This document shows, in pieces, positions 6,001-9,000 of a stretch of DNA of 64,000 bases (positions are counted from its first letter, which is position 1; every line of letters begins with the position of its first letter). The stretch is from Escherichia coli O127:H6 str. E2348/69. GTDB lineage: Bacteria; Pseudomonadota; Gammaproteobacteria; Enterobacterales; Enterobacteriaceae. The stretch lies in assembly GCF_000026545.1 (NCBI RefSeq), contig NC_011601.1; one strand, given 5' to 3'. The position numbers are program-made.

Positions 6001-9000
6001 TTTAAGCACACCAGAGCTAAACAGCACACTATCGAGTTTTGCGCTTCGTTGTGTAATTTCATCGATATGCTGCTGCCAGTTTTGCAGAGCACGTTTAATG
6101 ACACCCGCCTGATATTCAAGGAAATAAGTCAGATCCATACCATCTGATTCAGTGTACTGGTAGCTGGCGGCATATTTTACTGGCGCTGCATGAAGCAAAC
6201 GGCTGATGGAAATATATTTAAAAACATCGTAGCCCGATTTCAGCATATACCAGTAAAACAGCGCCCGACTGGTGCGCCCGTTGCCATCCCGAAACGGATG
6301 TTCATGGGCCAGCATAAAATGCAGAATGCAGGCACGGACCAACGGATGAATATACCCTTCATGGCTGTTTAACCACTGGCAAACTTTTTCCAGCCGTTCC
6401 GGTAACAATGCCGCAGCGGGCGGTTGATGCACTATATTGCCATCATAGTCGGCGATCACAACATCATCTGTTTCACGAAATTCTCCCGGACGATATTTCG
6501 CGTCATTGATTCCACCCATACCAATGGCATGTAACTGGCGAATAAGCGCAGGTGTCAGCGGTTCTGCGAGTAAGTGCGGAATTTCCGCCATCAGCCGGGC
6601 ATTTCCCGCAATCATATGCTCGTCTTCAGTGCGTGGCGACCGCCCTGTTTCCAGCATTTTTCTCGCCACCAGCGTTGTAGTATTCGCACCTTCCAGCTGG
6701 GAGCTGGTGATCGGCTCTTCCAGGCGTAACTGGCTTAACTCGGCTCCGGCCCCGCGTAACCGTTCAGTCTGATCTTTCAGCGCCAGCGCGGTAGCACGTT
6801 TGTCGACAAGCTCGCACGCTTCTGCAATCACCGGGGTAATGTTGAATCCGGCCTGTTCACCCGCTTCATTGCAATAATTAATTCGTTGGATCGCCGCGTT
6901 GCGCGCCAGACGGGTAAGCGTCCACGCCACATCGACGTTTTCTCCTTTTTTGATGCGGTACTGCAACTCATCAAAAGGCAGATAACGTCCTTTTTCATCG
7001 GTAACCCGGTTAAAGCGCAGGTGGGCCAGGAGTTCCTCACCCGATAAGTGTGATAAAGGAATAAGTCCGGGAGGTGATTTGATAGCCATGTGCTTATCTC
7101 AAAAAAGCGCAATATTGAGATAGTGTATAGCAGGAAAGAGAAACTATCTCAAAAAAAGCAAGTTTTGAGATAGTTGAAAAAGCGGCTGACAACTCGCCAG
7201 CCGTTGTGGAAATGATGATTACATCGCTGCGCGATAAATCGCCACAATTTCTTCGTGAGTTGCCTGGATCGGGTTAGTAAAGCCGCAGGCATCTTTCAGG
7301 GCATTAGTCGCCAGAACCGCGAAATCTTCTTCTTTCACGTTCAGGTCGCGTAGGCCTGCCGGGATATCCACTTTCTTCGCCAGTTCACGGATGGCGTTAA
7401 TGCAGGCTTCAGCACCTTCCGCGTCGTTTTTACCTGTCACGTTCACGCCCATTGCAGCGGCACAATCACGCAGACGTGCAGCGGCGACTTTGCTGTTGAA
7501 TACCTGAACATGCGGCAGCAAAACGGCGTTACATACACCGTGTGGCAGGTTGTAGAAACCGCCCAGCTGGTGCGCCATCGCATGAACATAACCCAGAGAA
7601 GCATTATTGAACGCCATACCGGCGAGGAACTGGGCATAAGCCATTGCTTCACGCGCTTTCGCATTACTGCCATCTTCAACGGCTAACGGCAGGTTTTCGG
7701 CAATCATGGTCACGGCTTTCAGTGCACAAGCGTCAGTGATCGGCGTGGCGGCAATAGAAACATACGCTTCGATAGCGTGCGTTAAGGCATCCATACCCGT
7801 TGCGGCGGTCAGTGACTTCGGCATACCAATCATCAGAGAGGAGTCATTGACAGAAAGCAGCGGAGTTACATGTTTATCCACAATCGCCATTTTGATGTGA
7901 CGCGCTTCGTCAGTGATGATGCAGAAACGGGTCATTTCAGAGGCCGTACCCGCCGTGGTGTTGATGGCGATCATCGGCAGCTGCGGTTTTGCAGAGCGGT
8001 CAACGCCTTCATAATCGCGGATGTCACCGCCGTTGGCTGCAACCAGCGCAATACCTTTTGCGCAGTCGTGTGGAGAACCACCGCCTAAAGAAATCACGCT
8101 ATCGCAATTATTTTCTTTAAGTAATTTCAAACCTGCAGCGACGTTTTCCGTGGTGGGGTTAGGTTGGGTGCCATCATAAATAACGCTAAAAATATTGCGT
8201 TCTTCCAGTGCTTTTTGCACATCACCCGCCATACCCAATTTCGTTAATATGTTGTCGGTGACAATTAAGGTACGGGTAAATCCATAATCTGCCATCATAT
8301 TCATTGCATCATTCAATGAATCAGCACCAATAACATTCACGGAAGGAATAAAAAAGGTTGAAGCTGCCATAACACACTCCTGAAAGTGTAAAAAAGGGCG
8401 GGCAGCTTACTGAGGATTTTCATTTGAAAATATGATCAGTATTATTGATTATCAAAATTAATCCAATAAAAAGCACATTGTATTCATTAAACAATGTGCT
8501 TTTTTAAAATCATAAGAATTTTGTATTAATTTATTTTAAAAATTAATTAATCATTTCCTTATTTTTCCGGAAATAATAATGCGTCGCGCAATAAATGATC
8601 ATTTCCACGACGCCGCGTAAAGCCAATGCGGTCAAAATATTCCAGAATCTGAATTGCCAGCTTGCGGCCTACGCCTAAGCGATCGCGGAAATCCGCCGCG
8701 CAGGTTGAACCACATTCCTGATCGAGATCGCGGATCATATTGGCAAATTCGACAATCCGATCGTTACGGTAATAACGATCTTTAACGATCGCGGTAATTA
8801 TCCCCTGCTGCGCCGCCTGGCGTAGAGTCAGGCGCATTGCCTGCTCGTCGGTTCCCGTCTCTTTTGCCAGATCACGCACCCACCACGGTTCGTCACCAAA
8901 CAGCGGCTCTGCTTTTTGCCAGATGGCCTGCTGCTCTGCACTGAAGCCCGCTTTGTGATCCGGCAGATGCAGCCAGCCGTGATGACTGAGGATGTCGCCG

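Follow-up and report, generated by a model that had tools for sequence, protein, structure and literature searches.

Paired palindromic dyads upstream of a class II fic gene in Escherichia coli E2348/69 as predicted autoregulatory operators

The fic locus, its paired dyads and the encoded protein

The 64,000-nt stretch of DNA analysed here (hereafter the window), which matches Escherichia coli E2348/69 at 100% in a database sequence match, carries on its minus strand the gene order selB (8559-10403), yiaY (7219-8370), a gene for a 431-residue Fic-family protein (5794-7089, hereafter fic) and aldB, as read from the list of open reading frames (ORFs). The yiaY gene lies directly upstream of fic on the same strand, and the 129-bp intergenic region between the two genes holds, between the yiaY terminator and the fic ATG (7089-7087), two minus-strand copies of a palindromic dyad (12-13 bp / N8 / 12-13 bp, ACTATCTCAAAA-N8-TTTTGAGATAGT) that are likely to be autoregulatory operators, read by the winged helix of Fic itself. 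The analysis thereby provides a predicted operator and promoter map for an uncharacterised protein (labelled 'Fic family protein' in RefSeq) of enteropathogenic E. coli, enterohaemorrhagic E. coli O157 and ~29% of complete E. coli genomes (full segment in 1572 of the 5357 that match the query region at all), whose absence from K-12 probably explains why it went unstudied.

The copy farther from fic (distal dyad, 7142-7175, minus strand) consists of AACTATCTCAAAA (7175-7163), cttgcttt (7162-7155) and TTTTGAGATAGTT (7154-7142). By repeat search it is a perfect inverted repeat with 13-nt arms (7142-7154 and 7163-7175) separated by 8 nt, exactly as described in the original prediction, which a model had made from the sequence alone and whose coordinates for two palindromic sites upstream of fic proved right to within 1-2 nt. 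For the copy next to fic the same search reported the inverted repeat TATCTCAA / TTGAGATA at 7095-7102 and 7115-7122. Laid out in the geometry of the distal site, this proximal dyad (7093-7124, minus strand) comprises ACTATCTCAATA (7124-7113), ttgcgctt (7112-7105) and TTTTGAGATAAG (7104-7093), which makes it a 12-N8-12 site with three off-consensus bases (ACTATCTCAAtA-ttgcgctt-TTTTGAGATAaG, 7124-7093). The half-site that the two copies had been said to share is indeed common to both, and it is the 8-bp length given for the proximal arms that had to be revised.

Both dyads are contained in a 30-nt direct repeat (7095-7124 and 7145-7174, 80% identity, 50 bp apart), and in each of them two TATCTCAA half-sites are spaced with their centres ~20 bp, or two helical turns, apart, the centre-to-centre distance between the dyads being 50 bp, or about five turns. 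The proximal dyad ends 3 nt before the ATG and its conserved half-site 5 nt before it. The top-scoring inverted repeat of the 129-nt intergenic region reaches 13, while 1000 shuffles averaged 4.8 and never exceeded 10, placing the dyad pair well beyond chance. At zero mismatches the half-site occurs within the 64-kb window only at the fic dyads; repeats of the repetitive extragenic palindromic (REP) or miniature inverted-repeat transposable element (MITE) type were considered and rejected, there being only two copies in the window, both at fic. The upstream limit of the fic regulatory region is the yiaY intrinsic terminator (7176-7203, minus strand; stem 7203-7183, then CTTTTTC), which lies outside the operator and for which a terminator scan gave nine pairs, six of them G-C, followed by a T run; it is present in strains that lack fic as well.

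The fic coding sequence (5794-7089, minus strand) specifies a predicted class II Fic enzyme (an adenosine monophosphate (AMP)-transferase), since catalytic and intramolecular inhibitory motifs are both present. The Pfam Fic domain is matched at E=1.7e-19, and the Fic motif HPFRDGNGRTSR (residues 264-275, encoded at 6265-6300) fits HxFx(D/E)GNGRxxR, with H264, P265, F266, D268, G269, N270, G271, R272 and R275 invariant in 19 homologs. The inhibitory motif SSQLEG (residues 129-134, encoded at 6688-6705) fits (S/T)xxxE(G/N) with S129, E133 and G134, in columns likewise invariant in 19 homologs, and is located N-terminal to the Fic core in the same chain, within a segment (residues 114-141) that AlphaFold models at low confidence (predicted local distance difference test, pLDDT, below 50).

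That the fic product ends in a helix-turn-helix (HTH) domain, as originally proposed, is borne out by weak Pfam matches (HTH_DeoR, HTH_11, IclR, MarR) over residues 361-414 and by the AlphaFold model (pLDDT 83.8), in which helices 367-378, 386-393 and 397-409 and wing strands 413-417 and 423-427 form a canonical winged helix spanning residues 367-427. This domain (encoded at 5797-6009, minus strand), with residues 397-409 as recognition helix (DNTARADLRTIVK, encoded at 5863-5901), is the presumed reader of the dyads. The best Foldseek matches in the PDB are all class II Fic proteins with winged helices (CbFic2 8cil, Dde_2494 4rgl, SoFic 3zcn/3eqx and CccR 7xux). A profile of the C-terminal domain run against the PDB matched the C-terminal domains of CbFic2 (8cil) and SoFic (3eqx), and a phmmer search of the PDB with the C-terminal 83 residues returned no Fic protein. 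The PADLOC SoFic model is matched at E=1.2e-43 (residues 96-428 of the protein, positions 30-351 of the 361 in the model), and the NCBIfam SoFic equivalog NF046030 at 40.2 bits against a curated cut-off of 550, so the E. coli protein is not a SoFic ortholog; by sequence comparison it is placed in a separate subfamily with ~95 extra N-terminal residues.

Linkage of the dyads to fic and co-variation with the recognition helix

A protein search returned Enterobacterales homologs at 43-76% identity, and a dozen of their loci were fetched. Their neighbourhoods all differ (a bglG-like antiterminator gene, a divergent VF530 gene, an autotransporter gene with AcaB, AbiEi, HicAB, fumarase, DUF927 and ParA), and fic is the sole gene common to all of them. 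Nevertheless, a dyad is found directly before the start codon in every fetched Enterobacterales locus, at 0-7 nt from the ATG, being degenerate in the Xenorhabdus locus L098. The homologs at 76% identity have the same dyad pair, one of them following a bglG-like gene (L087) and the other divergent from a VF530 gene (L088). Both dyads, ~50 bp apart, characterise a subclade of E. coli, E. albertii, Pseudescherichia, Salmonella, Pantoea and L087, and only the proximal dyad is found in Photorhabdus, Rahnella, Kosakonia and Klebsiella. Since the proximal dyad stands alone in several genera, the N8 dyad is the basic unit.

When six two-dyad loci were aligned, 9-11 nt of each arm were invariant, whereas the spacers and the DNA between the dyads were scrambled except for a TATA block. 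The distal arms are invariant in E. albertii, L087, L088, L090 and L092 with a different spacer in each, and even in E. albertii, where fic occupies the same chromosomal context, the arms are kept and most of the 8 spacer bases are changed. In E. coli-like haplotypes drawn from genomes and gut metagenomes, none of the 50 arm positions is variable, compared to 21 of 86 other intergenic positions (Fisher p=3e-5), a count from which an E. albertii-like haplotype with one arm substitution was left out on account of indels.

A scan of metagenomes with the exact pattern TATCTCAAAA-N8-TTTTGAGATA recovered 69 loci, 39 of which have a fic homolog 17-69 nt downstream of the dyad (37 E. coli-like, two at ~40% identity). 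No E. coli-like metagenome contig carries the exact dyad away from fic (37/37 upstream of fic), and the matches that are not beside fic are unrelated A/T-rich palindromes in environmental contigs. Four of these (L107, L118, L148 and L167) are located 29-131 nt from genes for serine recombinases of the resolvase/invertase type and, with conserved centres (AAAAC..TCGTTTTT), resemble crossover sites of the hix/gix type. They bear no relationship to the fic operators.

The arrangement extends far beyond the Enterobacterales. Close relatives other than E. albertii had been fetched singly; ~40 distant homologs at 30-45% identity were taken from among the matches listed in a genome-contig search and come from Pseudomonas, Betaproteobacteria, Actinobacteria, Verrucomicrobia, Planctomycetes, Deltaproteobacteria and two archaea. 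Many of them have a dyad 0-13 nt before the start codon, often with a second one ~50 bp upstream. Within the 100 nt upstream of the gene, the best-scoring inverted repeat has a median score of 9 for 48 fic homologs and of 5 for 167 other ORFs of the same loci (Mann-Whitney p=4e-17), and scores of at least 9 were reached by 26/48 fic homologs versus 9/167 of the other ORFs.

The sequence of the half-site, in turn, changes with the amino acid that aligns with N398, first of the variable residues in the recognition helix (xTAR), across ~50 loci of which two are archaeal. Where this residue is N the half-site is TCTCAA (18 loci), with Q or E it is CTAAT / GCTAA (18 loci), with A or G it is TATCAA (8 loci) and with D it is CCAAT (3 loci); the A/G and D classes each mix bacterial and archaeal loci. 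This co-variation is the strongest computational evidence, and it most likely reflects each Fic reading the sites before its own gene. A correspondence between one residue and one half-site that spans bacteria and archaea would be a simple, portable recognition code for this winged-helix family, and a half-site predictable from a single recognition-helix residue would permit operator prediction for thousands of homologs.

The neighbours of loci L090-L097 are often of mobile or defence type (AcaB/DUF3158, resembling those of integrative and conjugative elements; ParA with T5orf172; DUF927, primase-like; AbiEi; HicAB), which fits the match of the E. coli protein to the SoFic defence family of PADLOC. 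Few homologs occur in the plasmid and phage collections (19 records from plasmids, 18 of them below 60% identity, and three partial phage matches), a scarcity that leaves a plasmid or phage origin of fic unsupported.

A predicted promoter and a model of autoregulation

The two dyads bracket a predicted promoter. A putative -35 element, TTGAGA (7147-7152, minus strand; 5/6 match to TTGACA), lies inside the promoter-proximal arm of the distal dyad, and a putative -10 element, TATACA (7124-7129, minus strand), follows after a 17-nt spacer and overlaps the first base of the proximal dyad, so that the predicted transcription start falls near 7117, within the proximal dyad's left arm. A sigma-70 scan of the window made no promoter call at fic, the scan being silent because the E. 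coli -10 element is TATACA without the final T; in L087 and L090 the same scan did call TTGAGA-18-TATACT (10/12) at the corresponding position, and in Kosakonia, which has one dyad, TTGACT-16/18-CATACT/TACTAT overlapping the dyad. The TATA(C/A) block between the dyads is conserved in 6/6 two-dyad loci (TATACT in L087 and L090, TATAAC in L088, TATACA in E. coli), and some E. coli haplotypes carry TATATACT at the -10 position. Judging from its sequence, the E. coli fic promoter is probably weak.

Autoregulation by a Fic protein is already known in kind, and what is new is an E. coli locus with a different predicted operator geometry. CccR (YPK_0951) of Yersinia pseudotuberculosis is a class II Fic protein with a C-terminal HTH whose dimer represses its own promoter, as established by lacZ fusion, electrophoretic mobility shift assay, DNase I footprint, isothermal titration calorimetry, site mutation and the requirement for the dimer (PMC9755527). 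Its operator near -35/-10, AGATAATCAT-N26-ATGATAATCT, is a single pair of 10-bp arms with 26 bp between them, and the DNA-binding helices of the dimer are reported to be 70 Å apart (PMC9755527). The E. coli model resembles the CccR structure (PDB 7xux; Foldseek E=3e-9) in having an N-terminal inhibitory helix and a C-terminal HTH, and the E. coli dyads, too, are palindromes in the gene's own (here predicted) promoter, with the -35 inside the distal and the -10 abutting the proximal copy. On the other hand, only the Fic core aligns in sequence (E=1.5e-11, residues 122-289), CccR has 380 residues and lacks the ~95-residue N-terminal extension, and CccR is secreted and encoded beside a type VI secretion system (T6SS) effector cluster, whereas E. 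coli fic stands alone between yiaY and aldB. No T6SS genes were found at the homolog loci examined, and the E. coli neighbours are selB, yiaY and aldB.

SoFic of Shewanella oneidensis (PDB 3eqx/3zcn; Foldseek E=5e-10) has the same order of inhibitory helix, Fic domain and winged helix. Its dimer binds in the 100 bp lying upstream of its start codon and AMPylates EF-Tu (bioRxiv 10.64898/2026.07.09.737422), and proteins of the SoFic type form a single-gene anti-phage system (Millman et al. 2022 preprint, 10.1101/2022.05.11.491447; EcSofic, PMC12249575). The operator sequence of SoFic is undefined, and while anti-phage activity, EF-Tu AMPylation and a small downstream antitoxin, AS1, are associated with SoFic/EcSofic, the E. 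coli Fic is known here from its sequence; the ORF list shows no small ORF that could correspond to an AS1-like antitoxin gene in the ~100-bp gap between fic and aldB. There is also a likeness to type II toxin-antitoxin systems, which likewise combine a growth-inhibiting enzyme, an inhibitor and a repressor of their own promoter in one self-limiting module, but in the E. coli Fic all three would reside in one polypeptide, without a separate labile antitoxin. For conditional cooperativity as in type II toxin-antitoxin systems we found no evidence for E. coli Fic.

That Fic binds the dyads, with what dimer stoichiometry, where transcription starts and in which direction regulation acts are all inferred here, repression being favoured because of the analogy with CccR and the overlap of the dyads with the promoter. 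In the model, one Fic dimer would occupy each dyad, for which half-site centres ~20 bp apart are suited; this distance (~68 Å) would fit the 70 Å helix separation of the CccR dimer. The dimer on the distal dyad would cover the -35, TTGAGA being part of its arm, and that on the proximal dyad would extend from the last base of the -10 over the predicted start to 3 nt before the ATG. As 50 bp (about five turns) separate the centres, both dimers would sit on the same face of the DNA, and occupancy of either site would exclude RNA polymerase, with the outcome that a potentially toxic AMP-transferase is kept low and self-limited. The suggestion of autoregulation by the HTH of Fic in the original prediction thus gains computational support from the linkage of the dyads to fic, the co-variation of the half-site, the bracketing of the predicted promoter and the precedents of CccR and SoFic. 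If this holds, the single proven case of CccR would extend to a family-wide rule of lineage-specific dyads before start codons, from Enterobacteria to archaea, of use for expressing, derepressing or re-targeting toxic Fic enzymes or candidate phage-defence proteins. In analogy to Coxiella CbFic2, whose (de)AMPylation depends on DNA, the operator DNA might moreover act as a parking site that holds an inactive Fic dimer until phage infection releases or activates it, upon competition from other DNA, loss of supercoiling or disruption of the dimer, making the operator part of the sensing in a SoFic-like abortive infection; we regard this extension as unlikely.

Several observations weigh against autoregulation by Fic as outlined. 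The final T, usually essential in a -10, is missing from the E. coli element, and the promoter assignment rests on the orthologous loci. The comparison with CccR is one between distant relatives, as the CccR HTH was not retrieved by the C-terminal profile against the PDB, and its 10-bp arms 26 bp apart differ from two 12-N8-12 dyads spaced by 50 bp. The exact pattern is neither unique to nor diagnostic of fic, 30 of the 69 metagenome matches not being beside it, and the co-variation classes are partly confounded by phylogeny. Lastly, ~10% of E. coli genomes harbour an orphan dyad without fic, where the dyad persists in the absence of its presumed reader.

Alternative explanations and the loss of fic

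Could the dyads act in the transcript rather than in the DNA? The distal dyad might be a back-up terminator or stabiliser of the yiaY transcript, and the proximal dyad might sequester the weak Shine-Dalgarno (SD) sequence of fic and thereby control translation, as the only SD-like bases (GAGAUAAG in the mRNA) are held in its promoter-distal (right) arm. If fully transcribed, the dyads fold at -14.1 and -7.3 kcal/mol, with a z-score of -4.7 for the 121-nt region, and on the minus strand the distal dyad is picked up by the terminator scan. However, it is the sequence and not the pairing that is conserved: of 25 putative pairs in the six-locus alignment, 15 are invariant, eight are only broken and one is compensatory, and covariation does not rise above that of shuffles. 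Moreover, both dyads of a locus share one half-site sequence, which a protein needs and a hairpin does not, and a transcript from the predicted start (~7117) would lack the left arm and be unstructured (z=+1.2). The original prediction had noted that the dyads are AT-rich and atypical as intrinsic terminators, which agrees with a distal stem of only 3/13 G-C pairs followed by a poor, interrupted U tract (UCUCUUUCCU), and with the position of the genuine yiaY terminator just upstream (7203-7177); since the dyads persist in L088 as well, where fic diverges from the upstream gene, a Rho-independent terminator is rejected for the distal dyad, and so is a structured RNA element, given that an Rfam scan of 6800-7500 (E up to 1) gave no match and that compensatory change is confined to the single pair. 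Hairpins after yiaY, which had been offered as an alternative, are accordingly disfavoured, and we assign them a very low probability. The other alternative raised at the time, a different trans-acting regulator, global or a paralogous winged-helix protein, would leave the HTH of Fic to some other task such as DNA-stimulated enzyme activity. The assignment of the sites to Fic does rest on sequence comparison, and for Coxiella CbFic2 it is (de)AMPylation, not transcription, that DNA binding modulates (PMC10628234). Yet fic alone is common to the dozen contexts, and the half-site tracks the recognition-helix residue of Fic itself across phyla, archaea included, so that an unlinked regulator would need to have co-evolved and been co-transferred with fic; such a regulator therefore seems improbable to us.

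The dyads might also be recombination or mobile-element sites that mobilise a fic cassette, either a 13-8-13 tyrosine-recombinase core or a hix-like invertase site. The core sites of the loxP/FRT type have the same 13-8-13 geometry, and this proposal would explain the presence/absence polymorphism that confines fic to 29% of E. coli, with a breakpoint in the distal dyad; the four unrelated metagenome matches near serine-recombinase genes and an IS200C element that adjoins the orphan dyad in one genome could be read in its favour. Against it, neither the window nor any of the homolog loci examined has a recombinase gene near fic, and the central 8 nt, where strand exchange would take place, are unconserved and different in every lineage. 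The empty site speaks against it as well: what it retains is the fic stop and 9 nt of a single arm, as expected of an ordinary deletion, whereas site-specific excision would have left the core intact. Because fic occupies this locus in E. albertii too, it looks ancestral to the genus there. We consider recombination sites extremely improbable, and autoregulation by Fic itself remains the reading that we prefer.

Exact junction mapping against a K-12-type genome (L001, 692-710) delimits the segment absent from such genomes to 1368 bp (5800-7167), a stretch that takes in all of fic but its last codon and stop, both predicted promoter elements, the proximal dyad and the greater part of the distal one. 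The right breakpoint is inside the outer arm of the distal dyad, of which K-12 retains GAGATAGTT, and the junction reads ...GGGTTACA-GAGATAGTT-GAAAAAGCGG, the last codon and stop of fic being fused to GAGATAGTT. Insertion of fic into an empty site is rejected, as K-12 keeps the 9-nt arm and the stop; this scar, together with a C-terminus of homolog-like length and the presence of fic at the same locus in E. albertii, points to deletion from a fic-positive ancestor. A third allele at aldB-yiaY, in strain 405 (L003, 1585-1690) and ~550 genomes, has no fic and a complete orphan dyad, AACTCTCTCAAAA-atcgcaaa-TTTTGAGATAGTT, preceded by GAGATAAC. We infer from these sequences that the K-12 allele could have been derived from the strain 405-type allele by slippage between two GAGATA repeats.

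Further variation was encountered around these sites. In NZ_OZ121091.1 (L169, 2560-3270) the IS200C element, with tnpA, is inserted between the orphan dyad and the yiaY terminator, directly after the dyad, a position consistent with the preference of IS200/IS605 elements for hairpin-forming DNA. In E. coli 536 (L002, 700-745, compared with 7176-7215 of the window) the yiaY terminator differs (CGGCTGGCAACACGCCAGCCG, with other flanks) and adjoins the same GAGATAGTT scar, and this terminator indicates that the yiaY 3' end was exchanged or diverged independently of the fic deletion. The E. albertii NBRC 107761 contig NZ_BBMY01000080.1 (L007, 1-90) starts 5 nt upstream of the distal dyad; the break at the boundary of terminator and dyad may be due to chance or to an assembly problem with the repeat or hairpin. 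Xenorhabdus khoisanae (L098, 3706-4365) carries a second gene for a Fic protein with an HTH, convergent with and ~840 bp downstream of its fic homolog, so that winged-helix Fic paralogs are adjacent there. Finally, the chimeric ORFs P0098, P0007 and P0080 share 98-100% identity with part of this Fic and are fused to other domains, the product of P0098 having 503 residues with an aldehyde-dehydrogenase domain; they could be further deletion alleles that fuse fic to aldB, or assembly artefacts.

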